64,000 nucleotides of DNA from an uncultured Candidatus Poseidoniales archaeon (GCA_964585295.1 CAZPCY010000004.1:90786-154785); one strand, 5' to 3'. Shown: positions 3,875-37,274, counted from the first letter of the stretch. Numbers and translations: made by a program. Notes: a model not told the origin generated them from the sequence alone.

Positions 3875-6751
3875 TTAAGTCTGCGCCGCTTCAACCGGAT
3901 TCGCGCCGCCCGCATCGGTCAGCATCGATCCCTCATCCAGTGCAGCTCTCCGCTCTTCGACCTGTCTTGCTAGGAAGCTTACGACGTCGAGAATCTCAAA
4001 GTCATGCTTCGGGTCGCCTTCGAACTTCAGGCATTCGAAGTGACTAACGCACTTAGGACAGGATGTGAGCATAATCTCGGCACCTGTCGAGCGCACCTCT
4101 TCGAACCGCTGGATTCGAAGTGCACGGCTGTTCTCATTGCATCCCATCATGCTGGAGACGCCGCAGCAGAGAGCGTCCTCACCGTGGTGCTCCATCTCGA
4201 CGAGATCGACGTTCTCGACGTTCCGGACGAGGTCGCGCGGCTGCTCGTACATGTTCATCTGACGCCCGAGCCGGCACGGATCGTGGTAGGTGACCTTGGT
4301 TCCCTCCGCGGCTTCCAATCGGAAGTCGTGGCCGGATTCCAGAAGATACTCCGCCGTGTGCATGACCTTCATGTCATCCAGTTCGTAGTCCATTGCGAAG
4401 GTACGGAAGCACTCTGCGCATGATGTGACCAAGGTATCGATGCCACTCTTGGTGAGTTTCTTCTGGTTGTACGACTTCAGCTTCTCAAAGACCTCGGTCA
4501 TTCCTTGCCACTTCTGATCGTGACCGCAACACTTCAGGAAATCTCGACCGAGGTAGGCGACGTCGAGCCCGGCTTCTTCGAAGAGTGTGAAGGCAGCCGT
4601 CGTAGTGTCGCCGAGATCCATAGTTCCCTCGTTGACATGACTGAAGACCATCTCCTGATCGATGTAATCGACGCATCCAGGATAGTAACCGACCGTCGAA
4701 TCAATCGGATACTCGTCGATTGGGATGAAGAGGCCGTCGGCCTCCTCCTCCGCCTCGGCAGCGAGAACGGCCTGCAGGACCGTGTGGGGAATCTCAGCGG
4801 CGGGCGGTCCACCGACGATCAGGTTTCTGCGGATGTCTACGTAGGAGTCGTAGTCGACTAACTGTGGGCAAGCGTTCGTGCAGGCGGAGCAAGTCAGGCA
4901 TGTGTACATCGGTACTCCGTCATCTTCGTTGTTCCATGTGTTGTAGATGATGTTGAGCTTGTCACCCGCATTGAAGAGTCTGACAGGACACGCGTCATCG
5001 CACAGGTCACAGCCGTAGCACTTGTTCATCTCCCATTCGTAACCCCGCGCCATCCTTCGCATCAGCATGTAGACCAACGCACCGACGCCCAAGCAAGGTG
5101 CGAATAGGGAGTAGGTCAACTTCGCATCGAGGCTCTTGGGGTTCTTCTGGTAGGTCGGATTGTCGACCGTATATGATGAGAGTGAAGCGGTTGTTATCCC
5201 AGCGGCAGCCATCGCAGTAGCATCGCTTCGATCGATTGCCATCCCGTCAGCGCCGATGAGGAGCGGCTGGAAGGCAATCACCTGAATGTCGCTCGGAACA
5301 TACATCGTATCGTTGATGCCGGTGGCAGTGATTGAGTAATCGACCGTGTAGGTCGCACCGGAGGCGAGATACACCATATCGACTCCGCACTCGGAGAGCG
5401 ATGCGACGGTCGCTCCAGATGAGTCCTTGACTGTGAGAGTGGTGTCTATCATACCGACTCCACGCTCGCTCGTTCTCGCGTTGCAGGCGATGTCGGCCGG
5501 CACACTCGCGACACCAAGGTCCTCGACGGTCATAGTTGCAGAGTGTGTCGTAGAGACGGCAGCTCCGGATGCGAGTCCGCTTAGGTTGAAATCCGCCGTG
5601 ACGGTGTTGCGACCGCTAGCGGGGTCGCCGTGAGCATTCTCTCCAGCGTAGTCGATGACGGTCGCCTGCGTTGGTTGGGTTATCCCCCAATTCAGCCAAT
5701 GCGTAGCGGGTATCAGACACCAATCCTCCCGGAGTTGATCGCCGCTGAGGAAATCCTTGTGCTGCCAAGAATCAGCTCCGCTAGAATCCGTGTATGGGAG
5801 GCAATGCTGTTCCATGTGTTCCCAATGGTGGTTCTCGCCGAGATGGATGACGGTGTCGATTGGCTGGCCCCGTAGGCCGTCCAACTCCTCCACCTCATCC
5901 ATGGCGCCGAGTCCGCCGAGATCCCAGAACCCGTTCTCGTAGATTGGCCAAGTGAAGGCGCACAGTAGGGTGGCGGCCAGAATCGAGCCAATCGCGAGAT
6001 TCCTGCTGCGCTCAGGCGTGACTAGTGCTCCTTGCGCTCGGACGAGCATCCATCTGCCACCGTAGTAGAAAAGCGCGAAGAGGAATATCCCGGTCAACAC
6101 CCATGGTATCGAGTTGAACACCTCCGCCAGCCAAGGTTGTCTGACTCCGCAAGAGAGTCCGGCATGCGAATTCAACTGGCAGAAGTCGGTCCGGTTCTTG
6201 CCGTATAGGTCTAGGAAGATGTTGATTGAGTAGACCGAGATGAACCAGACATGGGCGAGGTAGACCGCCCCGGCAGTGGCGAACCAAGGGTCTTCGACCC
6301 CCCGCTTCTCTCGTCCGCCAAGGAAGGGGGGGAGGGCGAGGATTCCGACTGGAATTCCCGTCAGGACGCTCCCCCACCAAGCTGCGTTCCAAGAGATGAC
6401 CGGGGTGCCGAAGAACGCTCCAATCGCTTCGGGGAGCGGGATGTCGAATTGCGGCAGGTATTCGCCCCAGCGTAGATAGCCGTACGAGAAAAGGACATAC
6501 CAGTCGGGGAAGACGAATCCTGCTTGGGCGAACGGATCAGCTGCTGAGTGGAGAGGTGGGGGAATCAGCCAGCAGTAGAAAGCCAGAACCATCAGGATGG
6601 CTGCTAGGATGATGGTGTCCCTGAGCGCCTCTTGTGGCCAGAAAGGCGCACCTAGATGCAGCCTCTTCCGCTCCTTCTCAGCAACTTGCAACTTGTCGCG
6701 CTCCGTTACGTACGTGTCGGCTATTCGACCAAATCTCTCAAGGATGCCCAA
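3875..6751 (-). CDS. Fusion protein: cytochrome b C-terminal/subunit-IV-like membrane domain, extracytoplasmic S/T/A-rich domain, TM helix, then HdrD/GlpC-type Fe-S module (2x[4Fe-4S] plus two CCG domains)
   Basis: N-terminal ADPFAQAGFVFPDWYVLFSYGYLRW is the PEWY-box equivalent of cytochrome b / PetD. Multiple TM helices follow. The C-terminal part carries CYGCDLCDDACP, CLTCSACTNACP, YYPGC...KCCGHD, and YHDPC...LCCGVS...SCPKC. Confidence 0.75.
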   Translation of the reverse strand: MGILERFGRIADTYVTERDKLQVAEKERKRLHLGAPFWPQEALRDTIILAAILMVLAFYCWLIPPPLHSAADPFAQAGFVFPDWYVLFSYGYLRWGEYLPQFDIPLPEAIGAFFGTPVISWNAAWWGSVLTGIPVGILALPPFLGGREKRGVEDPWFATAGAVYLAHVWFISVYSINIFLDLYGKNRTDFCQLNSHAGLSCGVRQPWLAEVFNSIPWVLTGIFLFALFYYGGRWMLVRAQGALVTPERSRNLAIGSILAATLLCAFTWPIYENGFWDLGGLGAMDEVEELDGLRGQPIDTVIHLGENHHWEHMEQHCLPYTDSSGADSWQHKDFLSGDQLREDWCLIPATHWLNWGITQPTQATVIDYAGENAHGDPASGRNTVTADFNLSGLASGAAVSTTHSATMTVEDLGVASVPADIACNARTSERGVGMIDTTLTVKDSSGATVASLSECGVDMVYLASGATYTVDYSITATGINDTMYVPSDIQVIAFQPLLIGADGMAIDRSDATAMAAAGITTASLSSYTVDNPTYQKNPKSLDAKLTYSLFAPCLGVGALVYMLMRRMARGYEWEMNKCYGCDLCDDACPVRLFNAGDKLNIIYNTWNNEDDGVPMYTCLTCSACTNACPQLVDYDSYVDIRRNLIVGGPPAAEIPHTVLQAVLAAEAEEEADGLFIPIDEYPIDSTVGYYPGCVDYIDQEMVFSHVNEGTMDLGDTTTAAFTLFEEAGLDVAYLGRDFLKCCGHDQKWQGMTEVFEKLKSYNQKKLTKSGIDTLVTSCAECFRTFAMDYELDDMKVMHTAEYLLESGHDFRLEAAEGTKVTYHDPCRLGRQMNMYEQPRDLVRNVENVDLVEMEHHGEDALCCGVSSMMGCNENSRALRIQRFEEVRSTGAEIMLTSCPKCVSHFECLKFEGDPKHDFEILDVVSFLARQVEERRAALDEGSMLTDAGGANPVEAAQT

Positions 6752-13151: not shown

Positions 13152-13640
13152 ATGGCTGGGGGAGGCGAGGCACCTTCTGTCGAGCCGTGGGACCTCAGCG
13201 CGCTCGTCGGGGCGATCCTCCTCACTTCGACGATACTCATGCTCACTTGGCCGCCTAGCCATGATGTCGGATTGACCGGGGATCGAATCGGTCTCACCGA
13301 GGTTGGCGTGGGCGCTCTAGGTTCAGCGGATTCGATTGAGGTGACGCTTCGGAACGCCACCGCATGCGAGGTCGAGAACTCTACCTGTACAGGAGCTGTG
13401 ATACATGTTTCATCTCCTAATGGGGATGAGATTACGCAGTTCCGCCTCTCGGATGGAGAATCCCACACGACGGATAGGATGACGAACGGTCCCGTGACGG
13501 TCGAAGCCTCTGGTGAGGGCCAGTATAGAATCACGGTGAAGGTTCATCGACAACTGCCGTTGGAATTCGTTCCCGCGATGCTCGGAATCGTGCTTCTGGC
13601 ATGGGGAGAATGGCGTAGACGTCAAGGCCCATCGCCATGA
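13152..13640 (+). CDS. Hypothetical protein anchored by N- and C-terminal TM helices
   Basis: Internal ATG at 13152 chosen to avoid overlapping the Pop5 gene. TM helices LSALVGAILLTSTILML and FVPAMLGIVLLAW. Confidence 0.4.
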   Translation: MAGGGEAPSVEPWDLSALVGAILLTSTILMLTWPPSHDVGLTGDRIGLTEVGVGALGSADSIEVTLRNATACEVENSTCTGAVIHVSSPNGDEITQFRLSDGESHTTDRMTNGPVTVEASGEGQYRITVKVHRQLPLEFVPAMLGIVLLAWGEWRRRQGPSP

Positions 13641-15085
13641 TCCATATCCAGTTGGGTTTCTGAGCGAACGAACGCTGAATCCGCCACCATCAGAGCTCCC
13701 TCTTCGCTGATTCCTACCGGTCGCTCGTCAGCCTCGAATCCAAGTGAAGCGCCACCCCTAGAGAATCTCGCTGAGAAGAGGGACCACCATGCTCTCGATC
13801 TAGTGACGACATCGCTCCGCGGAAGCCTCGGGTGTGCCTCCAATCTACCCCCTAGACAGGCGGCAAGTGCAGTGAAGATGGTGTTGGCATCGGAACCAAG
13901 CCCGATATCATCGAATCCAGCCACCCGTTCTCCGTCCTGGATCCTTCCGCGACCGTTGATCCCGACTCCTAGGTCGAAGGTCGTTGATTCTCCAAATGTC
14001 CGACCCCTCAACAGGATTCCACCCAATTTTCCGACGTCTTCCACCATGATGTCGTTCGGCCATTTCAGTTGCACCCCCATTCTGGAGACTCGGATGCCTC
14101 CCGACCAAGAAAGGAGTGGAGGAACTTGCTGCAATCTCGAGGCGATTGCATCAGCGACTGCTAGCCCAGCCTCCAACTGCATACCGCCCCCACTATGCAT
14201 GATGTTACCGTCACGATTGGAGACCCTCCAGGTCGCGGTTAGATCGCCCTCCTCGCTATTCCAGATTCTTCCTCTCCTACCTTGGCCACGATCCTGCATC
14301 CTAGCGATTACGGCAGAACCTGTTGCAGCCTCATCAGGCATATCCTCCATCGTACTGGCGGAGCGTTCGAGGCGTACTGGCTCAATACGGCCCCAGCCCC
14401 GCCAAAGGGCGAGTGCTACCAACCTCTCGTCCCCGAACATGGTGCTGGCGAGAGGTCGGATCGACCACCCAGACTCGATCCACGATTCGAGGGTCGGACC
14501 CGAACGCTCCCCCAACCTATGGATGATGATCACGACTCCGTCATCCGCGAGGATGGAGGATTCTTCGATGAAGATGCGGAGCAACCCCGCCCACCCTCCT
14601 CCTTCCTCGATGTCAGTCAGGGCTCCCTCCTCAAGCGGCCCAAGCCTCTGCTCATCTAGGGTGACCGGATCCAGGTAGGGTGGGTTCCAGCATATGATGT
14701 CGAACGCACCCGGACCTGCCCACGCTCCATCATCCGATTCTTCGGCTAGACCACCTTCCCAGAAACTCGTTCTCTCCGAAACTCCCTGTTCCTCTGCTAA
14801 CCCCCTAGCCACTGCGATTGCGAGCGGGTGGACATCGCACCCATCAACATTCCAACCGCGGAGTGCGGCAGAGACTGATACCACTCCAGTTCCACAACCA
14901 ATCTCGAGCATCCTACCTGGTGGTCCACAGATTCGCATCAAGGCTAGGTCTAGAAGCGCCGAGTCCTCTCGAGGTGGATACACCGTGGGCGGTACGGAAA
15001 ACTGCCATTCCTTCCCTCGGCCATCGAACCAAATGTGTGCGGCGGCTGCCCCCCTACTCCTGGCCGCCTCTTCTTCTGCATCCAC
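13622..15085 (-). CDS. Fusion: class I SAM methyltransferase (PrmC/Mtq2-like, NPPY) plus biotin-protein ligase (BirA catalytic domain)
   Basis: N-terminal half has LEIGCGTGVVS (motif I) and ICWNPPYLD (motif IV). C-terminal half has GQGRRGRIWNSEEGDL and LKWPNDIMV, both BPL signatures. Confidence 0.7.
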   Translation of the reverse strand: MDAEEEAARSRGAAAAHIWFDGRGKEWQFSVPPTVYPPREDSALLDLALMRICGPPGRMLEIGCGTGVVSVSAALRGWNVDGCDVHPLAIAVARGLAEEQGVSERTSFWEGGLAEESDDGAWAGPGAFDIICWNPPYLDPVTLDEQRLGPLEEGALTDIEEGGGWAGLLRIFIEESSILADDGVVIIIHRLGERSGPTLESWIESGWSIRPLASTMFGDERLVALALWRGWGRIEPVRLERSASTMEDMPDEAATGSAVIARMQDRGQGRRGRIWNSEEGDLTATWRVSNRDGNIMHSGGGMQLEAGLAVADAIASRLQQVPPLLSWSGGIRVSRMGVQLKWPNDIMVEDVGKLGGILLRGRTFGESTTFDLGVGINGRGRIQDGERVAGFDDIGLGSDANTIFTALAACLGGRLEAHPRLPRSDVVTRSRAWWSLFSARFSRGGASLGFEADERPVGISEEGALMVADSAFVRSETQLDMDHGDGP

Positions 15086-27066: not shown

Positions 27067-28005
27067 TCAGCCTTCCGTGCGACGAAGGGCCATCAAGTCG
27101 TCGATGCCCACAGTCTCACCGCTCATGAGGAGATCCATGAGGTCCTTGACCTCGACGCGCTCATCAACCCCTTGGAGCCCTTTTCCTCGGTTCTCGCTCG
27201 CCCTGACTAGGTCTTGGATTGAGTGTAGGCAGCGTAGCGAGACGACGTACCTCTGGTGGTGTTGATCAGCGACCCGACGGAAGCGCTCGACCTTGCGATG
27301 GGCACGCTGTGCCTCGTCGCGGAGCCGATCAACTTCGCGTGAGATTTCCCCCATGAGGTCGTGCGCCGATTGAGCAGCCTCGGCGGCTGCCCCTACCGCC
27401 TGGTGCGCCTCCTCGTGTGCTTCGGATGCTTCTCCTACCGCCTTCTTCGCAGCACCAATCGCGGTGTTTCCAGAATCGGCCTTCTCAGCCTCCTTCAGTT
27501 CCCGAAACAGTCGCTTGAGGCGATCCATGGTCTCACGCTCCTTGTTCGGACCGATTGAACCGGTCTCGAGACTCCACTCAAGACGCTGGATCTCCTTGCG
27601 CAAGCGGGCCGGATTCGATCTCTTACCCTCGGATCCACCCGATTCTTCAATCAGATCCTTGAGGTTGTCTCGCACCTCTCGCAATTCGGTGGTCCTAGTT
27701 CGTCGTGCATCCTTCAGTTCTCGGACCCGAGCGTTCTCTCCATCTCGAATCTCACGCTGCTTCTGCATCTCGTCGATTAGTTCACGGACCTTGCTGCTCG
27801 CTTCCCTCCTCGTCTTGAGGTGGGTCTGCGTCTCGCCGTTGTTCCGGTCTCTCTCCTCGCGAGCGTCGTTCGCCTTCCGGTCGACGACCTCCCGCTTTGC
27901 GAGCAGCGTCTTCTTCACTGTCGACCACCCGTCATTCGGAGTCCCATCAGGGCGCGATGAGCGATATGCCGGCCGGTTATAAGTGCGATGCTGAATGGAC
28001 GTCAC
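27067..28005 (-). CDS. Archaeal coiled-coil protein (COG1340-like), paralog 1
   Basis: Heptad-rich K/R/E sequence. Central KEIQRLEWSLETGSIGPNKERETMDRLKRL motif; C-terminal LMSGETVGIDDLMAL. Confidence 0.6.
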   Translation of the reverse strand: MTSIQHRTYNRPAYRSSRPDGTPNDGWSTVKKTLLAKREVVDRKANDAREERDRNNGETQTHLKTRREASSKVRELIDEMQKQREIRDGENARVRELKDARRTRTTELREVRDNLKDLIEESGGSEGKRSNPARLRKEIQRLEWSLETGSIGPNKERETMDRLKRLFRELKEAEKADSGNTAIGAAKKAVGEASEAHEEAHQAVGAAAEAAQSAHDLMGEISREVDRLRDEAQRAHRKVERFRRVADQHHQRYVVSLRCLHSIQDLVRASENRGKGLQGVDERVEVKDLMDLLMSGETVGIDDLMALRRTEG

Positions 28006-28111
28006 ACATCTCTCTGGTCCTTTCCCTAATCGGAGATTACAGTATGTGCATCGGAGTCTTAGGCCGAAGGTTCATTCAGTTGGTCCGACGCGGCTTGGAC
28101 GAGGTATTAGC

Positions 28112-28795
28112 ATGTTCCTGACCGGCATAGCAGGCATGAATCGAGTCATGGAGAGAGACGCGCAGTCACCCTACCTGACTTTGTTGACCGGGCCGCCCGG
28201 GGCGATGAAATCTAGTTACGCCCTCAGCATGATGTCGAACCATCTTCGATCGCAGGGTGGTTTCGGACTCTATTGCACCGTGGAGGAGACTGTTGATTCT
28301 TTGATGCGATCGGCCCATTCGCTCGGCCTTCATCTCCCATCGAATCTGCAGTTGACTGATTTCACCGAACTTCGCAAGGAGAACCAGTCGATGGATTACC
28401 TCAAGTTCACTCGTCGTATGATTGAGCACTTCAAGGCGGAACGAGGCGATCAGTTCTCGGCCTTCGTGCTCGACTCCCTAGGTGCGATTTACAGTCTAAC
28501 GACGGTTGACGAGGAGATGCGGGTTAGGATGTTCAACTTCTTCGACTTCCTCCGGGCTCAGGATCTCTACACATTCATCATCACAGAGCGTCAATCTGGC
28601 CAGCACGCAGAGTTGGAAGGCAACGAAGGATTCCTAGCTGACGCGATTCTGAACCTCGGCGTTGACTTCCGAAATGGCCAGATCGTTCGGACTCTTCAGG
28701 TTGAGAAGTTGCGTCACATCAGGCATTCGATGGAGAAGCAGGCTCTGCATGTCGGACATACCGGTGTCGAAATCATAGGTCCGCTCTTCGACTGA
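28112..28795 (+). CDS. Single-domain KaiC/RecA-superfamily ATPase with atypical P-loop
   Basis: TGIAGMNRVM ... LLTGPPGAMKS (Walker A with Met where Gly is expected), TVEE, Walker B FVLDSLG, EKLRHIRH. Start taken at the internal ATG 28112. Confidence 0.6.
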   Translation: MFLTGIAGMNRVMERDAQSPYLTLLTGPPGAMKSSYALSMMSNHLRSQGGFGLYCTVEETVDSLMRSAHSLGLHLPSNLQLTDFTELRKENQSMDYLKFTRRMIEHFKAERGDQFSAFVLDSLGAIYSLTTVDEEMRVRMFNFFDFLRAQDLYTFIITERQSGQHAELEGNEGFLADAILNLGVDFRNGQIVRTLQVEKLRHIRHSMEKQALHVGHTGVEIIGPLFD

Positions 28796-28822
28796 GGCAC
28801 AGCCTCCGTAATTGCGGGCCAA

Positions 28823-29167
28823 TCAGATGCGTGGCATCAAGGGAGACAATCGCGCCGCCGCATCAATCGCCGCAGCCCGGACGGATCCATGATTAGGAGT
28901 TCTTTCCATGGCGACCAACAATCGATGATTTTGGTCGACTCTGATGACAATCAGGATTCCGTCCGAGCCAATCAGAGTCACTCTCTCAATCTCCTCGCCG
29001 AGGTCGTTGGCGCCCGCTTCCAGCAACGAGGCCGAGACGGCAGCGCCCGCCTCTGTGGTGGCGACTCCTTCTGGTGCGGTGATCAGAGGCAGCCCGTCAC
29101 CGCCAGAGAGACACGCCCACCGCACGTCAGGAGAGGAGGCGAGATCGCCGACTATCCTCTCCCTCAT
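28823..29167 (-). CDS. Roadblock/LC7 (MglB-like) domain protein
   Basis: 114 aa with the pattern VRWACLSGGDGLPLIT ... AAVSASLLEAG ... VTLIGSDGILIVIRVDQNHRLLVAM, typical of Roadblock/LC7. Confidence 0.5.
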   Translation of the reverse strand: MRERIVGDLASSPDVRWACLSGGDGLPLITAPEGVATTEAGAAVSASLLEAGANDLGEEIERVTLIGSDGILIVIRVDQNHRLLVAMERTPNHGSVRAAAIDAAARLSPLMPRI

Positions 29168-29260: not shown

Positions 29261-30184
29261 TCAATAGAGCCCGCCGCCGAGGAAAATAATACCAAAGCAG
29301 GCGATGATGAAGATGACCGGCAAGGAGAGGAATCCTGCACCGATGCCCATAGCCATTGCCTTGTTCGTCTGTGCGGCCTTCACAATGAGTGCTATGCACA
29401 TTATCGGCACACCGAAACATAAGAAGGTAAACATCAATCCTTCATCAATCGGTGGCTCGTAGTAGAAATCGATGTACAAGATGAAGTCGATTCTCATCTC
29501 TGGATCCACAATGTCGAACCAAATGGTCTGATTCGCTCCATTCCAGCCGCCGACGACGGTCATGTTCTCCTCCCAGTAGCCATCCTGATCATCAGTAAAT
29601 CGTTTTTCATGGTAGATGAAAACACCTCGAGAGAATTCGCTATCGTAATCGGAATAATCCTCTCCCGGATGGTCAAGGACATCGGTGCCCATATCGGTGT
29701 ATTTCTGAGGAATATCGGAGTGGTTGACCGCGTCCATGCCCATCCAGTCAACCGCACTCCAATCGATTTCAGGAAGGAAGATCTCGTGGTGCCCATCGGC
29801 TAGGTCCTCGGCACTCACCATACGCTCAAAATGATCATCGTGTGGTTCTCCCATTGTTTCGCCAATGGCGGCGATGACTGGCATCAGGATGAGTATCCCG
29901 AATCCGATTGCCAAGCCCTTGATGAAGGACTTCTGATCGCTTCGTTCCTTCTCTGGTAGGGGTTGACCAAGCGCCACCAATCCACCACCAGCCGGTTGGC
30001 CACTTATCATGCCACTTAGTTGGCCAGACGCTGGATTGGCAACCGCCTCACTTGGAGTCAAGGCCGCATCTGCAAGATTAATCTGGGCGTTTCCTTGGAG
30101 GCCCCCTTCGGTTGGAGTTGCAAACGAATCATCCGGATTCGTGGAGTCCTCCATCGGCGATCCCCCATCCTCTCCGTTCATCAT
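29261..30184 (-). CDS. Membrane protein (acidic extracytoplasmic domain between TM helices), coupled to the radical SAM gene
   Basis: ATGA overlap with the upstream stop. TM helices LAIGFGILILMPVIAAI and, at the C-terminus, FLCFGVPIMCIALIV and GAGFLSLPVIFIIACFGIIFL. Confidence 0.55.
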   Translation of the reverse strand: MMNGEDGGSPMEDSTNPDDSFATPTEGGLQGNAQINLADAALTPSEAVANPASGQLSGMISGQPAGGGLVALGQPLPEKERSDQKSFIKGLAIGFGILILMPVIAAIGETMGEPHDDHFERMVSAEDLADGHHEIFLPEIDWSAVDWMGMDAVNHSDIPQKYTDMGTDVLDHPGEDYSDYDSEFSRGVFIYHEKRFTDDQDGYWEENMTVVGGWNGANQTIWFDIVDPEMRIDFILYIDFYYEPPIDEGLMFTFLCFGVPIMCIALIVKAAQTNKAMAMGIGAGFLSLPVIFIIACFGIIFLGGGLY

Positions 30185-31707
30185 CGTGCCGCCTCCAATC
30201 CACTGCCATCATCGGATTCAGAAATCGGTAGCCGCACCCCATCAGAGGTTCGTGCAGCAATGTCATGATGTGATAGCAGAGCGAGTCCGGCCGCCTCCAA
30301 TTCGCGCCTTATCGGATCGAGTACGGTCTCTTCGAGATTCCCTCGGTAGAACAGGTTGTAGGTGTCGAAAGGGATGATTCGCAGATCTGGAGAGACGATG
30401 TGCACGCACGATTTCTTCACGCTGCGGACATCGAATCCATGTGCGTCTATGAACTCCATGATGATGATCCTGAACACATTGTCGTAAGTCAGGGAATCTG
30501 GAATCTCCAGCGCCGGCAGACAGCACAGCAACTGTGAGATGGCGTTGGTGGCGCTGTTTGGGGAATGCGCCGTCGATAGCAGCCCGAGGACGCTTTTTCG
30601 GAGTTCTGGGTCCTGTTCGAATTGGATCGTCGAGCGAGGTCCAGCGAGCAGCGTCTCATCGTCGATGTGTCTGGTTATCGGCAACACCTCGTCTCCGAGT
30701 CGCAGGGCGTACGCCATGGCGATGCAGTCGGGGTGGCATGGGACCGGAAGCATATCGTCCAGTTCGAACAGTTTGGATTGCTCAGCGATCATCCGGCGGA
30801 CCTCGGATAGCGTGAGCCGATCGGTGGCTGGATTGTAGTCGTCGGTCCGCCCGGCGTCTTGAATCGGCTGGAAGGTCACACCACGAACATGTGGCTGGGA
30901 GAGAGCATAGTCAAGCAGGTTCCCAATCCCTTCGTCATTGACACCCTTCGCGACCGTGCAGACCAGAGTGGTCGAGACCGAATGAGCTGCGAGGTTCGCC
31001 ATCGCCTTCTCTCGGACGCTGCGCAGGTCAGCGCCGCGGAGTTTCATCAGCGGCCCCCGCTCCAGACTGTCGAACTGCAGGTATACTTCGAATCCCGGCA
31101 TGTAAGAAGCCAGCCGCTCGGCGAACTCGGGCTCATTGGCGATTCTTATGCCATTGGTGTTGAGCATCAGATGCTGGATTGGCCTTTCCTTAGCAGCATC
31201 TAGGATGGCGAAAAATTCGGGGTGGAGGGTCGGCTCTCCACCCGAGATCTGGACTACGTCCGGCTCGCCTTCGTTGTCCACCACGGCATCGAGCATCTCG
31301 ATAACATGTTCCAAGGTGCGGTATGAATCCACATGCTCCGGGCCGGATCCGGCGTAGCAGATTGGACATCGCAAATCACAGTGATCAGTCACTTCTACTA
31401 TGGTAAGGCAGGAGTGCTGTTCGTGGGATGGGCAGAGGCCACAGTCATATGGGCAGCCGTGCTTCATCGGAGTGTTCCATCGCTCCGGCATCTCGCTCGG
31501 CTTGACGAACACCTCGCGGCATCGCCGATAGTAATCCGCGTCGTCAGAGATGAGGACCTCAGAGCGCTTGCCGCAGCCGTAGCAGAGCTTGTCCATGAAG
31601 ACCGAATCATCCCGGATGAGGACCTTCGCTTCAGCCCTCCGAAGGCAGGAACCGCAGACGGAGGTCGCGGTATCGTAGAATAGGTAGTCCCTGATCTTGC
31701 CGCTCAC
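30181..31707 (-). CDS. Radical SAM enzyme with N-terminal rubredoxin-like Cys pairs and an auxiliary Cys cluster (COG1964-like; possibly tetraether-synthase-like)
   Basis: CDLRCPICYAG (CxxxCxxC); upstream CGSC...CYGC and GCPYDCGLCPSHEQHSC; ISGGEPTLHP. A GTG start at 31707 forms a GTGA overlap with the Lgt-like stop. The listed ATG at 31806 would overlap that gene by 100 nt. Confidence 0.75.
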   Translation of the reverse strand: MSGKIRDYLFYDTATSVCGSCLRRAEAKVLIRDDSVFMDKLCYGCGKRSEVLISDDADYYRRCREVFVKPSEMPERWNTPMKHGCPYDCGLCPSHEQHSCLTIVEVTDHCDLRCPICYAGSGPEHVDSYRTLEHVIEMLDAVVDNEGEPDVVQISGGEPTLHPEFFAILDAAKERPIQHLMLNTNGIRIANEPEFAERLASYMPGFEVYLQFDSLERGPLMKLRGADLRSVREKAMANLAAHSVSTTLVCTVAKGVNDEGIGNLLDYALSQPHVRGVTFQPIQDAGRTDDYNPATDRLTLSEVRRMIAEQSKLFELDDMLPVPCHPDCIAMAYALRLGDEVLPITRHIDDETLLAGPRSTIQFEQDPELRKSVLGLLSTAHSPNSATNAISQLLCCLPALEIPDSLTYDNVFRIIIMEFIDAHGFDVRSVKKSCVHIVSPDLRIIPFDTYNLFYRGNLEETVLDPIRRELEAAGLALLSHHDIAARTSDGVRLPISESDDGSGLEAAR

Positions 31708-32507
31708 GCCTCTTCGACGGAGTCGGAGGGCAATGAAGCATCGCCATCCAAGACTTCGATTCTTCCAGGACCCGAATACCAAGCGAGAGCGATTAAGCAT
31801 ACCCATTGGATCGGAGACAACCAGAGCAATTCAGTGTCATGCGGTTTAATCGAATCGATGGCGAGTCGCCAGGCAAGGTATCCCATCATGAACCAGCGGA
31901 ATCGTTGACCAGTGGGCATTCTAGGTGCGAACCGAGGAATATTCTTGGCTCGCCGTTCAGCGAGATTGAGCATCAGCAACAGAACTCCTAGGAATACAAT
32001 CTCGTACAGTTGTGTGGGGTGGCGGAACCCATCTCCGAAATCGACGGCCCAAGGCAAGTTGGTGTGGACACCATGCGTCATGTCGGACATTCCTGAGAGG
32101 AAGCATCCTATCCTGCCGATGGCTATCGACACGATGATTGGGGTTGCGTAGACATCACCGGTCCGCACCTTGATTCCAAGATACCATTTCACAGTCTCGA
32201 CAGCAATCATTCCACCGAGAAGTGCGCCTACCACGGTCTTGCCACCGATTAGAAGGGCAGGGTCGTTCGACAATGCCTCGGCAGTTTGAGGAAGATGTTC
32301 GACCCAGACCAGTATTTTGGCTCCGATGATTGCTCCAATCAATGCTCCGAGGATTAGCCAACCACGTACCTCCATACTGATAGAATCGCCACGCTGCTCC
32401 CTCTCGCGCATGATGAGTAAGAATCCGACGATAAAGGCGAGGCTCTCAAACAGCGGATGTGGATGGATCCGGAACGGCCCGAGGGTAAACCAGACCGGGA
32501 ACTGCAT
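31704..32507 (-). CDS. Prolipoprotein diacylglyceryl transferase (Lgt)-family membrane enzyme
   Basis: GKTVVGALLGGMIAVE and GRIGCFLSGMSDMTHGVHTNLPWAVDFGDGFRHPTQLYE parallel the Lgt signatures (GRxGNF ... RHPxQLYE). Seven hydrophobic segments. Confidence 0.7.
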   Translation of the reverse strand: MQFPVWFTLGPFRIHPHPLFESLAFIVGFLLIMREREQRGDSISMEVRGWLILGALIGAIIGAKILVWVEHLPQTAEALSNDPALLIGGKTVVGALLGGMIAVETVKWYLGIKVRTGDVYATPIIVSIAIGRIGCFLSGMSDMTHGVHTNLPWAVDFGDGFRHPTQLYEIVFLGVLLLMLNLAERRAKNIPRFAPRMPTGQRFRWFMMGYLAWRLAIDSIKPHDTELLWLSPIQWVCLIALAWYSGPGRIEVLDGDASLPSDSVEEA

Positions 32508-32537: not shown

Positions 32538-33722
32538 TCAGCGGACTTCTTCTCGCTCTCTTCCGAGCGCGTGCCGCCTCGGACCACCCCTTCTCGGGGT
32601 TGAACGGCTACGCTTGCGCGGCTTCCCAACGTCGCTTTCCTGCTTATGCCCCTCAGGTTCTTTGGACGGCTGTGGGCCAGTTGCATCTTCTCCACCAGTC
32701 TCTCCGTCATCTCCCGCCAACGCACCTAGGCCACCTCGATCGAGAAGCGCTCCTAGGTCGTCAAGGGTCAACGACCCACCCTCAAGAGCCCTCTCCTGAA
32801 CCTCCTCAAACGACTCTTCTCTAGTCAGCAGTCGTCCGCTTTCCTGCAACCTGAGGAAAGCCTCCAAACGCCCGCGCTCCCTTCTCATGCCTCGAAGATT
32901 CCTTCGTTGCTCCTTTGAGAGCGAATCTATCTCTTCGATCCTGTTGCTGATTCTTTGCACCGCTTTCCAACCGGCATCTTCGCTGTTTGCGTGAGGCACA
33001 TCCGCCAATCCATCTTCGACCACCTTCTCGCTAGCTTCCTTGGATGAATCGAGCAACTTGCCTATCTCTCGCATCCGAAGGCTGCAATCTCGTTGAGTTT
33101 GGTGAGCGTCCTCGGCCTTCTTCTTCCTCAGGTACATCTGCTGATGTTCGAAGAATCGACGGAACATCTCCCTCTCAAGTCCGAATCTGGGAATTTCCCT
33201 CAGATCGTTGTGCATCTGGGTTAATCCTCGATGCAGATGGTGCATCTGTTCCACAATCTGCTCCAGCAGGGGTGGGATGTCCCGATTGATTGAATCTCGG
33301 ATACGCCGCGCTGCCTCCGCCTCTTTCCGAGTCTTGGTCATCTCATCTATGAGCGCTCGTCTCTCAGCGCTCATATCGCTCCTGTTTCGGAGTGCGGCGC
33401 GCATCGCCGTAACAATCTCGACCTGCTGTCGGCGTTCGTCCTTAATCGATGAGTGCTGTTGCTCCATCGCGCGGAGATTGGCCTTCACCTCTCGTAGCAT
33501 CTCCTCGATCATGTGGGAATCCATCTTCTCTAGATCATCGAAGAGACCGGATCCACCGTTGTCAACAGATTTCTTGCGGGAGCGTTTCCTCCTGCCACGA
33601 GACGATCCTCCCCGGGATGCCCGCCCTGAATCTCTGCCATCTCCGCGATGGCCCTTCCGTCCGCTGCCGCGCCCACCTCCGCTCCGGGGGGAGGACTTGC
33701 GAGGACGTCTCTCGTCGCTCAT
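32538..33722 (-). CDS. Coiled-coil protein (COG1340-like), paralog 2, with Arg/Gly-rich termini
   Basis: ATGA overlap with paralog 3. RGG-like N-terminus, long heptad region, C-terminal ALEGGSLTLDDLGALLDRGG. Confidence 0.6.
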   Translation of the reverse strand: MSDERRPRKSSPRSGGGRGSGRKGHRGDGRDSGRASRGGSSRGRRKRSRKKSVDNGGSGLFDDLEKMDSHMIEEMLREVKANLRAMEQQHSSIKDERRQQVEIVTAMRAALRNRSDMSAERRALIDEMTKTRKEAEAARRIRDSINRDIPPLLEQIVEQMHHLHRGLTQMHNDLREIPRFGLEREMFRRFFEHQQMYLRKKKAEDAHQTQRDCSLRMREIGKLLDSSKEASEKVVEDGLADVPHANSEDAGWKAVQRISNRIEEIDSLSKEQRRNLRGMRRERGRLEAFLRLQESGRLLTREESFEEVQERALEGGSLTLDDLGALLDRGGLGALAGDDGETGGEDATGPQPSKEPEGHKQESDVGKPRKRSRSTPRRGGPRRHALGREREEVR

Positions 33723-34540
33723 TCCTCCTCACCTCTGACTGACAATCTTTCGTCGCGCCGGATGGCGCTAGTCGATATGCCACCAGATGCCACGCGGTTA
33801 GCGTCCTCCAGCAGATCCTCGTAGTCACCTTCCATACGACCGAAACCGTCCTGCAGTCGTCGCTCCCAGTACTCGACGGCGCGCTCAGCGTTGCCGAGGA
33901 TAGCCTTCGCTCGGTGGAGTTGCCGATCGGTGTCGACGCGCTCCTTTCTAATCAATCTGAATCGGCTCGATATCGGATCTGCTCTCTTGATTGCCTCAAT
34001 CATCCGCTGGTGCGCCTTGTTCCCGGTTTTGTAGAGGGCATTCATTCTACGCCTCGCATCGATGTAAGCAGCCATCTGGGGGTTCTCTGCCCTGCGTTCC
34101 TTGAGCCACACCTCGTTCTGTTCGACGAGCCGCTGCCTTTCCTTCAGCATCTTGGCCTCTTGTCGATGATCGTAAGCCTCCGTCTCGATTCTCTCGTCTA
34201 TCGATTGCAAATTCTCAATCAGTCGGTCCTTCTTCCACTTCGGATCTAGGCTGACCAGGCCGCCCCCCCCCTCCAGTGAGGAGCGCGCCCTCTCCGCCTC
34301 CTCTCTGAGCGCCTTCGCCTCGGTATGTGCCTCATCGCGCACGACCTTGTGGTCGGCTATGCGATGTTGCGCTTCCCGGTGCGCTTTCGTCGCCTTCTCA
34401 AGTTGTGGCCCGAGTTGATCAGCCGATTCCTCGAGTGTCCTGATGATGTACGGGAGCTGTTCAGACAGCAACCTCCGCCTCAGAAGGACAGCCTCCGCTA
34501 CCTGTTCGGGAGTGAGTTCAAGCAGGGCATCGATCTCCAT
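33719..34540 (-). CDS. Coiled-coil protein (COG1340-like), paralog 3
   Basis: Start placed at the internal ATG 34540 (MEIDALLELTPEQ). The upstream part of the listed ORF is low-complexity and antisense to the next gene. LQSIDERIETEAYDHRQEAKMLKERQRL motif. Confidence 0.55.
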   Translation of the reverse strand: MEIDALLELTPEQVAEAVLLRRRLLSEQLPYIIRTLEESADQLGPQLEKATKAHREAQHRIADHKVVRDEAHTEAKALREEAERARSSLEGGGGLVSLDPKWKKDRLIENLQSIDERIETEAYDHRQEAKMLKERQRLVEQNEVWLKERRAENPQMAAYIDARRRMNALYKTGNKAHQRMIEAIKRADPISSRFRLIRKERVDTDRQLHRAKAILGNAERAVEYWERRLQDGFGRMEGDYEDLLEDANRVASGGISTSAIRRDERLSVRGEEE

Positions 34541-34649
34541 GGAGGCATCGACGGCCACCGTAGAGGCTGCAATAAAGGGTTCCAACCACTTCCGACCGGC
34601 AGCAACGCCTATGCGTCCTTCGCATCGCATCCCGGGCGTGGTCGTGCGT

Positions 34650-37274
34650 ATGCGTCGTCGCGCCCTGATGCTCACCCTTCTTGCTGTGTGCGCTCCAATG
34701 GTGTCCTTAGACGTCACTGGCTCGGCTGGCGGGATGCTGATGATCACCGAAACGGTCACCCTGTCCGGCGATGGTGGAGTCGGAACGGGGGATATAGTGG
34801 TCACATTCGATGTCATAGAGGTTGAGGGTGGGCCTGCGAATGCCACTGTTCGCGCCAGCATAGTGTCAGGAGAGGGCGAGGAATTATCGGTTACCAATCT
34901 CAGCGTCAGCCTCAACGCCAGCGAGATGAGAGGAGTCTCGCTGACTCTGCAATCGGTTCCCCCTGGCCTGCACCAATTGCGCATGGTTCTAACCGGAGAG
35001 GTCGCGATACCTACCGCTGTGGGCTCTGACAACGGAACCGATCTGCATGAGCTGTTCATCAGACGCCATTTGCCACTCTCGCTGTCGCTCGCCGCACCTT
35101 TCACGATCGTCCCGCTTGATGGTCAAACCGGATTGCCGAGTGGTAATACAACCCTGCGCGATGGGGATTCAGCGAACATCTCCGTCGCCGTGACCAATGA
35201 GGGCGAGGTTGCTTGGAACGGCTCATGGGTCTTCGAGATAGATGATGGAGAGGGTGGCTGGATCCAAGTATCTTCAGGGGATGTCTCAATCTCCTGGGAT
35301 GATGATGGCCTCATCCAGGGGGCCTTGGGACCCCTGTCAGAGGGAGTCCTTCAGGTGCGGGCTAGGTTAATCGGCTTGGCAGATGCCGACCCTTCGGACA
35401 ACAGCGCCATCGATAACCTCACCACCGGCCCTCCTGCCGGCCCGAGGCCGCATATCTCTCTAATCGGGGATGTTGCGAATGCATCAGTCGGTGATCAGGT
35501 CGTCATCACGGCGATGGTGACCAACGATGGTGATCTCTCACATTTCGGCAATTGGTCATGTGGATGGGTCGATGGAACTCCTATCACGAATGGGAGCGGG
35601 TCGCTCTCCGTTGATGTTGGATCAGCGACTAACCTCACGATAATCGTCGAGGCAAGACCAGGTACGCTGAGATGTACCTTAGAATCTGCGAGAAGCCATG
35701 CGGATGCCACCTTAGAAGGGGAGATCGTATTCGACCTCGCCGCTGCTTCCTTCACCATCGCTGGCAGCGCCGGAATAGCCCTCACCGGATCTCCCGCGCA
35801 TGTAGGGGATACTCTGGAAGCGAGCGTTCTGGTGCACAATTCAGGGGAAGCGAGCGGATCCGCGTTCCTAGTGTTGACTCGGGGGGCAGATGGCGTCGCG
35901 ATTTCGACGGGGGCTCCCGTGACCATTGACCCTGGATCAAGTCGGGAGGTTACCACCATGATGACTCTGACCGAAAACGGCTCCCAGTCGATCGATTGGC
36001 GAATCGGTAGCCAAGACGGTTTCAGAGATGGGACTCTCAATGGAACCTCGTCCTTCGACGCCCAGGAATCGCAGTCACTCGATGTCTCGATTGCACCTGG
36101 ATCGTGGACCCTAGACACCGGCCTTTCGGCTACTGTGACCACCACACTCTCCGAGGGTCGCGATCGATTGGTCACCATCGAGACAGGTCACCTGGCCGGA
36201 GGTTCCCGAACCGCTGGCCTCACCTTCGCCGTGCTTCTCTCACCGGGCTCACGCACCTTCGAACTCGATCTTGACCACCCGGCTTCCTCATCGCTGTACG
36301 TGGAGGCGGAACCGGTTGGATGGACAGCCTCTGCCAATGCATATCATGAGGCTGCAGCGGTGATGCCGACGATTGCACCGTCGGTCGAATCACTGTCTTG
36401 GAGCACTCCTACACCCAATGGTCGCGTCACTCTGACCTTCGATCTAGTGAACGGCGGAAATAGCGATACCCTAGCTGGAGAAGTCGTCGTCGTCGACGCA
36501 GGGGATGGAGCGATACTTGCTGAGGTCGCCGTCGAACCTGTCGGTTCAAGAGCAGAGGAGATGTCAATCGTCGTCGATCCATGGCCGACCGGTTCCACCG
36601 TCGATCTACGCATCGAGTGGAGGTGCGGCGACGGTCGGGCGGAACTAGTCGAGACGATCAGCAATGCAATCATCGAGGAATCTCTCTCCGCGACATTGCC
36701 GGTCGAGGCTCTCGCGGTCGGCATCATCGGAGGTCTAGCATTAGGATTAGCAGCCAGACTCCTCCTTCGTCGCGATGAACAACCGAAGGGCAGGGAGGGG
36801 GAATCGTTGGGCCGAAGTAGAAGTTCGGGTCGTTCCCTTACGGCCGACGAGGACGACAAGCGAGAGGTGACTTGTCCTTCGTGCTCACAGGCTCTCAGGG
36901 TTCCATCGGCATACGCCGGCAGGGCTAGGTGTCCAGCGTGCAGCACTGAGTTCTCGGCAGCTAGAATGGATGATTCGGAGGGGGGTCAATCAGTCGAGAA
37001 GGTGGATGAGGAATTCGAAGGTTCGGAAACCACCCAGCCCTTCTCATCCCCGGAAGAGGAATCCGAACCTCCGGAGGCAAGTGAGTCCGATGCGAGCCGA
37101 TTGAATGCTTCTCAAGCTGACTCATCAGATGCGGAAGAATCGGTCGCCAGATCGAAGGACGATCTCCTATCCTGTCCGGAGTGTAGTCAGAGACTACGCA
37201 TCACGATTGACAAGAGGCCGACCAGAGCGAGATGTCCTGCCTGTCGGGCGGAATTCAGGGCAGAGGTGGGATGA
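34650..37274 (+). CDS. Large cell-surface protein with CARDB-like repeats, a C-terminal TM helix and a cytoplasmic tail carrying two MJ0042-type zinc ribbons
   Basis: Signal-like start MRRRALMLTLLAVCAPMVS at 34650. Repeated V-x-N-x-G modules (VAVTNEGEVAW, AMVTNDGDLSH, VLVHNSGEASG, FDLVNGGNSDT). TM helix ALAVGIIGGLALGLAARLLL. Zinc ribbons CPSCSQALRVP...RCPACSTEF and CPECSQRLRIT...RCPACRAEF. Confidence 0.65.
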   Translation: MRRRALMLTLLAVCAPMVSLDVTGSAGGMLMITETVTLSGDGGVGTGDIVVTFDVIEVEGGPANATVRASIVSGEGEELSVTNLSVSLNASEMRGVSLTLQSVPPGLHQLRMVLTGEVAIPTAVGSDNGTDLHELFIRRHLPLSLSLAAPFTIVPLDGQTGLPSGNTTLRDGDSANISVAVTNEGEVAWNGSWVFEIDDGEGGWIQVSSGDVSISWDDDGLIQGALGPLSEGVLQVRARLIGLADADPSDNSAIDNLTTGPPAGPRPHISLIGDVANASVGDQVVITAMVTNDGDLSHFGNWSCGWVDGTPITNGSGSLSVDVGSATNLTIIVEARPGTLRCTLESARSHADATLEGEIVFDLAAASFTIAGSAGIALTGSPAHVGDTLEASVLVHNSGEASGSAFLVLTRGADGVAISTGAPVTIDPGSSREVTTMMTLTENGSQSIDWRIGSQDGFRDGTLNGTSSFDAQESQSLDVSIAPGSWTLDTGLSATVTTTLSEGRDRLVTIETGHLAGGSRTAGLTFAVLLSPGSRTFELDLDHPASSSLYVEAEPVGWTASANAYHEAAAVMPTIAPSVESLSWSTPTPNGRVTLTFDLVNGGNSDTLAGEVVVVDAGDGAILAEVAVEPVGSRAEEMSIVVDPWPTGSTVDLRIEWRCGDGRAELVETISNAIIEESLSATLPVEALAVGIIGGLALGLAARLLLRRDEQPKGREGESLGRSRSSGRSLTADEDDKREVTCPSCSQALRVPSAYAGRARCPACSTEFSAARMDDSEGGQSVEKVDEEFEGSETTQPFSSPEEESEPPEASESDASRLNASQADSSDAEESVARSKDDLLSCPECSQRLRITIDKRPTRARCPACRAEFRAEVG

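Follow-up and report, generated by a model that had tools for sequence, protein, structure and literature searches.

A marine-archaeal copy of a mostly bacterial membrane cassette encoding an Lgt paralogue, a Tes-like radical SAM protein and a Cys-box membrane protein

The DNA analyzed here (the window) is a stretch of 64,000 nucleotides from an uncultured Candidatus Poseidoniales archaeon (GCA_964585295.1 CAZPCY010000004.1:90786-154785), in which positions 29,261 to 32,507 contain three minus-strand genes encoding an Lgt-like protein, a radical SAM protein and a membrane protein. This locus is the marine-archaeal copy of an uncharacterized, mostly bacterial membrane cassette with three components: an Lgt-family gene with Cys at the position of N146 of Escherichia coli Lgt, located directly upstream of or fused to a zinc-ribbon radical SAM gene, and a protein with a conserved Cys-box. 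All of these are present in the window. From its sequence, the radical SAM protein is a homologue of tetraether synthase (Tes, or GDGT-MAS) over nearly its full length and not a Tes orthologue, and the cassette gives no evidence for tetraether lipids in these marine archaea. A role on membrane lipids or lipid-anchored proteins, which had been proposed in an earlier reading of the locus (the original prediction), is the best reading of the results. The enzymes are of known kinds, but the cassette is undescribed in the literature that was searched; full-text literature searches returned no paper linking Lgt with a Tes-like radical SAM protein and no description of the cassette.

Composition and conservation of the cassette

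The three genes in the window are translationally coupled (Table 1). Reading of the junctions (...GAGGCGTGAGCGGC and ...GCACGATGATGAAC) confirmed the GTGA overlap of the Lgt-like and radical SAM genes and the ATGA overlap of the radical SAM and membrane-protein genes, both of which had been reported in the original prediction, and translation reproduced the motifs listed there, namely GRIGCFLSGMSDMTHG and RHPTQLYE in the Lgt-like protein and CGSC, CYGC, CPYDCGLCPSHEQHSC and CDLRCPIC in the radical SAM protein. The longest open reading frame (ORF) of the radical SAM gene begins at 31806, but the start codon is, judging from the conserved N-terminus and the public gene call of 508 aa, the GTG at 31707. 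A spacer of 30 nt lies upstream of the Lgt-like start, and 93 nt separate the third gene from a Roadblock-like gene.

Table 1. Features of the cassette and its neighbors (positions counted from the first nucleotide of the window)
Feature	Position	Strand	Description
Lgt-like gene	31704-32507	(-)	267 aa; Lgt-family paralogue, polytopic membrane protein without head domain
Radical SAM gene	30181-31707	(-)	508 aa, GTG start; Tes/GDGT-MAS superfamily
Third gene, membrane protein	29261-30184	(-)	307 aa
GTGA overlap	31704..31707	(-)	Lgt-like stop codon and radical SAM start codon
ATGA overlap	30181..30184	(-)	Radical SAM stop codon and membrane-protein start codon
Lgt signature motif GRIGCFLSGMSDMTHG	32070..32117	(-)	R132 = E. 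coli R143; C135 replaces N146; G146 = G154
Transmembrane helix 6 segment YLAWRLAIDSIK	31845..31880	(-)	E. coli Y235, R239, E243 (Asp here), R246 (Lys here); second phosphatidylglycerol/diacylglycerol site
Rubredoxin-like zinc ribbon	31552..31680	(-)	C18-x2-C21-x20-C42-x2-C45; Zn_ribbon_HMPTM E = 8.7e-10
N-terminal auxiliary [4Fe-4S] motif CPYDCGLCPSHEQHSC	31408..31455	(-)	C85, C89, C92 = MJ0619 C73, C77, C80; conserved His present
Radical SAM cluster motif CDLRCPIC	31357..31380	(-)	C110, C114, C117
C-terminal auxiliary-cluster region	30364..30738	(-)	C324, C395-C396, M417, C434 invariant or nearly so in the clade
Cys-box segment NKAMAMGIGAGFLSLPVIFIIACFGIIFLGGGLY	29264..29365	(-)	C296 (codon 29297-29299), context ...FIIACFGIIF...
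Coiled-coil genes	32538-33722 and 33719-~34585	(-)	
Roadblock-like gene	28823-29167	(-)	Sub-threshold Pfam match, 20.1 vs 23 bits

The gene arrangement is far beyond chance, because well over 100 unrelated genomes and metagenome contigs share the identical gene order, and the neighborhood conservation that the original prediction asked about was therefore found. Of 172 related loci, 142 had enough upstream sequence, and 127 of these contained an Lgt-family gene upstream of the radical SAM gene and in the same orientation. In Paenibacillus, Cystobacter and marine-archaeal homologues the order is LGT, radical SAM and small ORF. An all-against-all clustering of neighboring genes revealed no conserved neighbor besides the Lgt-family gene. 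The same adjacency of the Lgt and radical SAM genes was present in a clade whose radical SAM proteins are only 43% identical, and two database proteins, P0243 (51% identity) and P0350 (37% identity), combine LGT, zinc ribbon and radical SAM domains in a natural fusion. Furthermore, the pairwise distances of the Lgt-like and radical SAM proteins from 109 loci were correlated with r = 0.79, compared with a permutation maximum of 0.11, and the marine-archaeal copies were mutual nearest neighbors for both enzymes. Because of the synteny, the fusions, the adjacency in the 43%-identity clade and the correlated distances, the pair is judged to be inherited and transferred as a unit, and the coupling of the two enzymes claimed in the original prediction is a real, conserved functional link. 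A metagenome-assembled genome (MAG) of Halobacteriales also carries the Lgt-linked cassette. This copy groups with bacteria for both enzymes, which suggests that it was acquired separately from the marine-archaeal one.

The radical SAM proteins define the taxonomic range. Database searches identified proteins with 74-75% identity to the window protein in marine metagenomes, followed by an unbroken series of 61-65% identity from Paenibacillus, Cohnella, Cystobacter, Acidobacteriota, and Alpha- and Gammaproteobacteria. Scans of genomes and metagenomes added Brevibacillus, Neobacillus, Roseateles, Dechloromonas, Myxococcota, Planctomycetota, Elusimicrobia, the Halobacteriales MAG and a Bacteroidota plasmid. 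This tight clade (56-75% identity) also spans Bacillota, Betaproteobacteria and marine archaea, and upon clustering at 50% identity essentially the whole of it collapsed into one full-length representative (P0241) plus fragments. The cassette is thus widespread, with approximately 60% identity across phyla, and it may join two well-studied chemistries, thioether lipidation of the Lgt kind and radical tail coupling of the Tes kind, to a candidate substrate. Since cultivable strains of Paenibacillus, Cohnella, Brevibacillus and Cystobacter carry it, its function is directly testable.

Some loci have further genes next to the cassette. In eight Betaproteobacteria loci (for instance, L062, 740-2914), the gene immediately upstream encodes an LplT-like MFS transporter fused to a PlsC-type acyltransferase, the domain pair that recycles lysophospholipids. 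Two loci of the Blastocatellia type (L175 and L176) have a gene for a protein with OB-fold and HD domains upstream and a MobA/IspD-like nucleotidyltransferase gene downstream of the cassette; the same two domains also occur as a fusion in P0384, a distant radical SAM relative, and may hint at a nucleotide-activated head group.

Relation of the radical SAM protein to tetraether synthase

The radical SAM protein contains the Pfam domains Radical_SAM (E = 1.7e-20) and Zn_ribbon_HMPTM, and its residues 15-466 align to the structure of the GDGT-MAS protein MJ0619 (PDB 7TOL) with E = 3.5e-62. An AlphaFold model of the protein had a mean predicted local distance difference test (pLDDT) value of 65, with high values in the radical SAM core, and the best Foldseek match of this model was again 7TOL (E = 6e-32, TM-scores of 0.69 and 0.71), with MoaA far behind (3e-10). 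The likeness to the Tes/GDGT-MAS proteins (MJ0619, PDB 7TOL/7TOM; MA_1486) includes a shared fold of approximately 450 residues, the rubredoxin-like spacing, the CPYDCGLCP..H motif, the CX3CX2C SAM cluster, the GGE motif and a counterpart of the labile Met439 of MJ0619, which is kept as M417 in the window. The spacing of the zinc ribbon equals that of MJ0619, C9x2C12x20C33x2H36 (Lloyd et al. 2022). Thus, the radical SAM protein very probably resembles GDGT-MAS in how its fold and cofactors work. The fourth rubredoxin ligand is Cys in the window (CYGC) and His in MJ0619 and most members of the clade. In addition, the window protein has a C-terminal extension of approximately 35-40 residues (residues ~470-508; 30181-30300; ...SHHDIAARTSDGVRLPISESDDGSGLEAAR), which most bacterial homologues (~466-490 aa) do not have.

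The original prediction had placed the radical SAM protein in, or close to, this lipid-acting group. The homology to GDGT-MAS/Tes is borne out by the alignment and the fold, but functional membership in Tes is not. The NCBIfam cut-off levels are 450 bits for Tes (NF045702) and 490 bits for TrsS (NF045646), and the window protein scored 255.3 and 302 bits, respectively, below both. Bacterial members of the clade scored 267-289 bits against the Tes model, and 20 further representatives all fell short of the Tes cut-off, with a single one (P0328, 32% identity) passing that of TrsS. The window protein is approximately 27% identical to MJ0619, compared with 56-66% to proteins of many bacteria. In a tree of 84 sequences, built from distances by neighbor joining, the window protein and its marine relatives were sister to the bacterial clade, and MJ0619 and TrsS were found elsewhere. 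The clade of the window protein is mostly bacterial and Lgt-linked, whereas the MJ0619-proximal homologues that were examined adjoin methyltransferase genes. The comparison of profile and phylogeny with Tes that had been suggested thus grouped the protein with bacterial Lgt-linked proteins at a distance from MJ0619.

The C-terminal columns of the 84-sequence alignment, which were compared one by one, also differ from those of MJ0619. Tyr459 of MJ0619 corresponds to Ile437 in the window and to Ile or Val across the clade. The equivalent of Cys455 is Ser or Thr in the clade and that of Cys470 is Asp (D448 in the window), while both Cys residues are common to MJ0619 and its tree neighbors. Conversely, Cys324 and the Cys395-Cys396 pair are invariant in the clade, whereas MJ0619 has Ser and a gap there. 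In our reading, the enzyme has the GDGT-MAS/Tes architecture of rubredoxin-like site, N-terminal cluster and SAM cluster, together with a C-terminal cluster that was probably remodeled. Strict conservation of Tyr459 among 1,000 archaeal homologues has been reported (Lloyd et al. 2022). However, since Y459F/L variants of GDGT-MAS are still active in vitro, Tyr459 is a family marker and not a catalytic requirement. With a score below the Tes cut-off, in a bacteria-dominated clade far from MJ0619 and lacking the Tyr and the two C-terminal Cys residues, the window protein gives no support for a bearing on tetraether production by planktonic archaea, the debated question for which the original prediction considered its identity important.

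It could still be argued that the radical SAM protein is a true synthase of membrane-spanning lipids, joining lipid tails end to end into either glycerol dialkyl glycerol tetraethers (GDGTs) or macrocyclic lipids in the archaeon and lipids of the diabolic-acid or branched GDGT (brGDGT) type in bacteria, and that the Lgt-like and small proteins only dock or deliver. The homology to GDGT-MAS extends across all four domains, the counterpart of Met439 is conserved, the clade is common in Acidobacteriota, a phylum with brGDGT producers, and a role as brGDGT synthases has been proposed for Tes homologues of bacteria (Zeng et al. 2022). Against these points stand the missed Tes cut-off, the replacement of Tyr459, C455 and C470 across the clade, and the much closer relationship (~60% identity) of the window protein to proteins of Paenibacillus, Cohnella, Rhodanobacter, Roseateles and Cystobacter than to MJ0619. 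None of these bacteria is known to make membrane-spanning lipids. A synthase of this kind would also leave unexplained the near-obligate Lgt paralogue, the fusions, and the invariant Cys in tandem small proteins. Moreover, Koribacter and Solibacter have closer Tes homologues (40-42% identity; Zeng et al. 2022), and a Koribacter MAG contains a member of the window clade as well (P0053), which suggests paralogues with different roles. We consider such a synthase unlikely.

TrsS, which was reportedly defined by Haft and Tolstoy in 2025, belongs to the same superfamily and is the best-scoring curated NCBIfam model for the window protein, but this identity was rejected because of the score and the gene context. 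The only representative that passed the TrsS cut-off is surrounded by genes of the methanogen type (URO-D-type methyltransferase, RACo, MCR) and lacks a neighboring Lgt gene, in contrast to the window cassette. In other clades of this Tes/HMPTM superfamily, a SAM methyltransferase is adjacent or fused, as with TrsS in the methanogen context and in Haloarcula and Mycolicibacterium plasmids, and other partners include a MobA-like NTP transferase and HD domain fusion and a DUF5714 fusion (L173, L179, L181, L182; P0360, P0384, P0389). In function, the superfamily extends far beyond tetraether synthesis. Non-lipid cofactor chemistry, such as C-methylation of a pterin, might be considered: MJ0619 was originally annotated as a 7,8-dihydro-6-hydroxymethylpterin dimethyltransferase, the JGI names of clade members still carry the pterin annotation, and links to methyltransferases and to corrinoid or methanogenesis genes are seen in other clades of the superfamily. 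This is most improbable, as later work showed MJ0619 to be a lipid synthase (Lloyd et al. 2022) and as the window clade is partnered not by methyltransferases but by small membrane proteins and an integral-membrane enzyme that handles phospholipids.

These distinctions matter for how Tes homologues are counted in marine samples. One Tes homologue (28% identity) was found in 231 MAGs of Marine Group II (MG-II), and it was concluded that MG-II archaea make no GDGTs (Zeng et al. 2022). Our results give this conclusion a firmer basis for the type of gene found in the window, to which the homologue in their MAG may belong. The Marine Group II homologue figures in the debate over which organisms make oceanic GDGTs and hence in that over the TEX86 proxy, and a marine-archaeal gene in the Lgt-linked clade should not count as tetraether potential. 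Similarly, screens for brGDGT producers use bacterial Tes homologues, a large share of which, in Acidobacteriota and many other phyla, belongs to the cassette of the window and may do something else. Haloarchaeal Tes homologues were reported in strains without GDGTs (Zeng et al. 2022). The use of haloarchaea as natural negative controls was considered and dropped, since the plasmid homologues inspected belong to a different, methyltransferase-linked clade (28-30% identity).

The Lgt paralogue, the Cys-box proteins and a possible mechanism

The Lgt-like protein contains the Pfam LGT domain (E = 4e-27, positions 1-231 of 240; 95.5 bits vs a cut-off of 24.9 bits) but is below the cut-off of the equivalog model TIGR00544 (63.1 vs 118.9 bits). 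Its AlphaFold2 model (pLDDT 86) matched the fold of Lgt with seven transmembrane (TM) helices, with the head domain absent, and the sole significant match in the PDB was E. coli Lgt (5AZB; E = 5.7e-6, TM-score 0.54). When 70 cassette-linked sequences were aligned with E. coli Lgt, whose residue roles were taken from Mao et al. 2016 (PMC4728403), it was found that R143, R239 and Y235 are kept in 69-70 of the 70, that position 243 is Asp or Glu in 69, and that position 246 is Lys in 67. The window counterparts are R132 (R143), R214 (R239), D218 (E243), K221 (R246), Y210 (Y235) and E169 (E202). G104, G142, G145, G154, R195-H196-P197, Y201 and E202 are also kept. In contrast, H103 of the HGGL motif is replaced by Val in 65 of the 70, Y26 by His in 64, and N146 by Cys in all, and E151 is variable. 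In E. coli Lgt, the Arg pair R143/R239 has been proposed to catalyze the transfer, H103 is the proposed site of the acceptor peptide, and Y26 forms a hydrogen bond to the sn-2 ester of the donor; no tested substitution of H103 or Y26 complements (PMC4728403). The catalytic residues whose presence the original prediction had asked about are therefore kept in part, with the R143/R239 network retained and H103 and Y26 lost. Our reading is that the donor-side chemistry, the activation of the glycerol-phosphate ester of a phospholipid, was probably retained, along with the Arg pair and the second phosphatidylglycerol/diacylglycerol site, and that the acceptor side was rebuilt for a different, dedicated acceptor. 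The cassette proteins also differ from E. coli Lgt in their association with a radical SAM enzyme, whose gene accompanies theirs and in some cases is fused to it.

It has been stated by Pohlschroder and colleagues that no archaeal homologues of Lgt are known (PMC12462473). The present comparisons indicate that Lgt-family genes do occur in archaea, namely in marine archaea and the Halobacteriales MAG, as components of a specialized cassette. AliA and AliB of Haloferax volcanii also concern the lipidation of a lipobox Cys in archaea, but they are unrelated in sequence to the cassette proteins.

The third component of the cassette is a family of small membrane proteins. In bacteria, the products of the small ORFs downstream of the enzyme pair share a conserved C-terminal helix (e.g., ...KKRVGIGQGLLIGGAVTFLLNAACFGVVMANF), and an iterated hidden Markov model (HMM) defined a family with three TM helices, a Q-L-x-Y-x-x-P-A motif in TM2, a basic loop, and a TM3 ending in LLNA-x-C-[F/W]-G. 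The Cys stands in a lipobox-like context, [G/A/S]-x-C-[F/G/A]-G, within a TM helix that comes after a basic segment. Approximately 200 members were found in databases, all unnamed or hypothetical, and all listed but one were without a Pfam domain. Three of three randomly sampled members directly follow an Lgt-like and a radical SAM gene; one of them is a single copy, and the other two occur as two and three tandem copies, respectively. In the Halobacteriales MAG (L015), two tandem Cys-box proteins follow the cassette (5327-6176 and an overlapping frame). The third protein of the window has a hydrophilic N-terminus, TM1, an acidic loop of 141 residues (35 Asp and Glu vs 6 Lys and Arg), TM2, a short basic loop, and TM3 with the Cys-box, the TM helices being its three hydrophobic segments. 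Its C296 falls in the one column that is invariant across the small-protein family, and the protein scored 32.0 bits against an HMM built from bacterial cassette small proteins only, compared with at most 7.2 bits for 200 shuffled tails. The third gene is thus a member of the small-protein family in which an acidic ectodomain separates TM1 from TM2 as an insertion. The original prediction correctly described a membrane protein with an acidic ectodomain but missed the conserved Cys-box.

In a second architecture, the Cys-box ends the first helix and the small ORF is located between or upstream of the enzyme genes, with ends such as ...LLGVSGCFGFL and ...VVSLGLCGVNF. An initial rule that required a C-terminal Cys detected a small protein in only 65 of 146 loci and was replaced by a position-independent rule, in which a basic residue is followed by an uncharged hydrophobic stretch, small residues, Cys and [F/G/A]-[G/A], on the coding strand and outside the enzyme genes. 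With this rule, a Cys-box small ORF was found in 90 of 109 loci, as against 9 of 109 on the opposite strand. The positions of these ORFs were downstream of, between or upstream of the two enzyme genes, and 23 of the loci contained at least two of them (two or three). The Cys-box closely resembles an Lgt substrate, as seen from the fact that the rule also catches ordinary lipoprotein signal peptides in neighboring genes. It differs from a lipoprotein signal peptide in that the helix runs on beyond the Cys.

The most likely explanation, to which we give an even chance, is that the Lgt paralogue transfers a diradylglyceryl group to the Cys-box thiol and that the radical SAM enzyme links a lipid-tail carbon through a new C-C or C-S bond. 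In this mechanism, the Lgt paralogue would bind and activate a glycerophospholipid and move its diradylglyceryl moiety onto the Cys thiol of the small protein. The Cys-box Cys is the inferred acceptor, as the basic segment, the hydrophobic stretch, the small residues and the Cys appear to mimic an Lgt substrate. The cytoplasmic radical SAM enzyme, which in some organisms is fused to the C-terminus of the Lgt paralogue, would dock on the latter, abstract a hydrogen from a carbon of a lipid tail, as Tes does, and form a C-C or C-S link on the donor lipid or the attached lipid. Both outcomes are chemically plausible because GDGT-MAS chemistry runs via a lipid-sulfur intermediate. The product would be a small membrane protein that is covalently lipid-modified or crosslinked. 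A more specific version would be a protein-lipid conjugation pathway of bacteria and archaea in which the Lgt paralogue S-lipidates the Cys-box and the radical SAM enzyme couples the lipid tail to another lipid or to the small protein itself. If true, this would provide a covalent, possibly membrane-spanning anchor and the first functional Lgt-family enzyme in archaea, but in this specific form it is unlikely to be correct.

Several points weigh against transfer to the Cys-box. H103 and Y26, which are essential in E. coli Lgt, are replaced, and the paralogue might not transfer to Cys at all. The active site of Lgt faces the outer leaflet while the radical SAM enzyme is cytoplasmic, so that shared access to a substrate is hard to explain, and in the AlphaFold2 model of the radical SAM protein, confidence is low for both the cluster loops and the C-terminal domain. 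Apart from the window protein, the small proteins of marine archaea have diverged too far for the bacteria-only HMM. Approximately 17% of the loci fail the strict Cys-box rule, though several of them look positive on visual inspection. A structural subunit would be equally compatible with the Gln and Pro conserved in TM2 of the small proteins. The mechanism as a whole is inferred.

Some of these points could also mean that the pathway acts on lipids only. The Lgt paralogue and the radical SAM enzyme might make a new free glycerolipid, for instance one with a thioether or C-C bridge, with the small protein as a structural or catalytic subunit of the membrane complex, whose Cys would be a ligand or a transient carrier and not the final acceptor. 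The conserved intramembrane Gln, Pro, Asn and Cys of the small protein are typical of a subunit, H103, which is linked to acceptor binding, is lost, the invariant active-site residue Cys135 of the Lgt paralogue could carry a covalent intermediate, and a lipid-sulfur intermediate occurs in GDGT-MAS chemistry. However, the occurrence of two or three Cys-box ORFs in 23 loci, and the variable architecture of the small proteins, with the Cys-box in the N- or C-terminal helix and an ectodomain of 141 aa in the archaeal protein, are more substrate-like than subunit-like, and we regard a pathway without a protein substrate as rather unlikely. Alternatively, the radical SAM enzyme may act directly on the small protein, for instance by forming a thioether or crosslink at the Cys, in the manner of enzymes for ribosomally synthesized and post-translationally modified peptides (RiPPs), with the Lgt paralogue adding or removing a lipid separately. 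The tandem, precursor-like small genes with their one invariant Cys fit this, and the structural matches below 7TOL include the peptide-modifying radical SAM enzymes SkfB, SuiB and anSME, at the level of the core fold only. Yet the protein has no SPASM/twitch or RiPP-recognition domain, the lipid-binding GDGT-MAS is by far the closest structure (other matches being at 3e-10 or weaker), and the Cys lies deep in a TM helix, probably near the outer leaflet and away from a cytoplasmic enzyme, making direct action on the small protein quite improbable.

Neighboring genes and other features of the window

The original prediction listed two coupled coiled-coil genes upstream and a Roadblock gene downstream of the three genes. 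The coiled-coil genes are indeed located 30 nt upstream, but the downstream Roadblock assignment is a Pfam match below the threshold only. As parts of the system, the coiled-coil, Roadblock, KaiC and DUF7121 genes were rejected, because they are absent from all bacterial loci and because the position of the cassette within the marine-archaeal block of coiled-coil, Roadblock, KaiC-like, DUF7121 and PurP genes varies between contigs; the same block recurs elsewhere with the cassette at a different position. In the window, the block (27067-29167 and 32538-~34585) encodes a DUF7121 coiled-coil protein, a divergently oriented KaiC-like ATPase, a weak Roadblock/LC7 match and two coupled coiled-coil proteins. 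With PurP, it is found again in related marine-archaeal contigs (L087, L093) regardless of the location of the cassette, and it may be a separate conserved module of ATPase, Roadblock and coiled-coil proteins. The local order of PurP, DUF7121 and KaiC-like genes, followed by PdxS and S3Ae, is common to contigs with an NCBI-labelled Candidatus Poseidoniaceae protein, and the window carries unsplit rpoB, rpoA' and rpoA'', which mark it as archaeal. A Poseidoniales-like (Marine Group II) origin is thus probable from the sequence.

On the opposite strand, positions 34443-37274 (+) encode a predicted surface protein of 943 aa with a weak CARDB match and a C-terminal TM helix, after which follows an acidic cytoplasmic tail with two CxxC...CxxC repeats resembling zinc ribbons. 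Since the 5' end of this gene overlaps a long antisense ORF (33719-35104), the start of the second coiled-coil gene must lie near 34585. Anti-phage defence was considered and rejected, as PADLOC gave generic viperin-core matches only. A gene for a GshA-type glutamate-cysteine ligase adjoins an asparagine-synthase-like gene (1184-2452 and 61-1227, both on the plus strand), and in a single ORF at 13622-15085 (-) a domain of small-molecule methyltransferases is joined to one of biotin/lipoate protein ligases (BPL_LplA_LipB).

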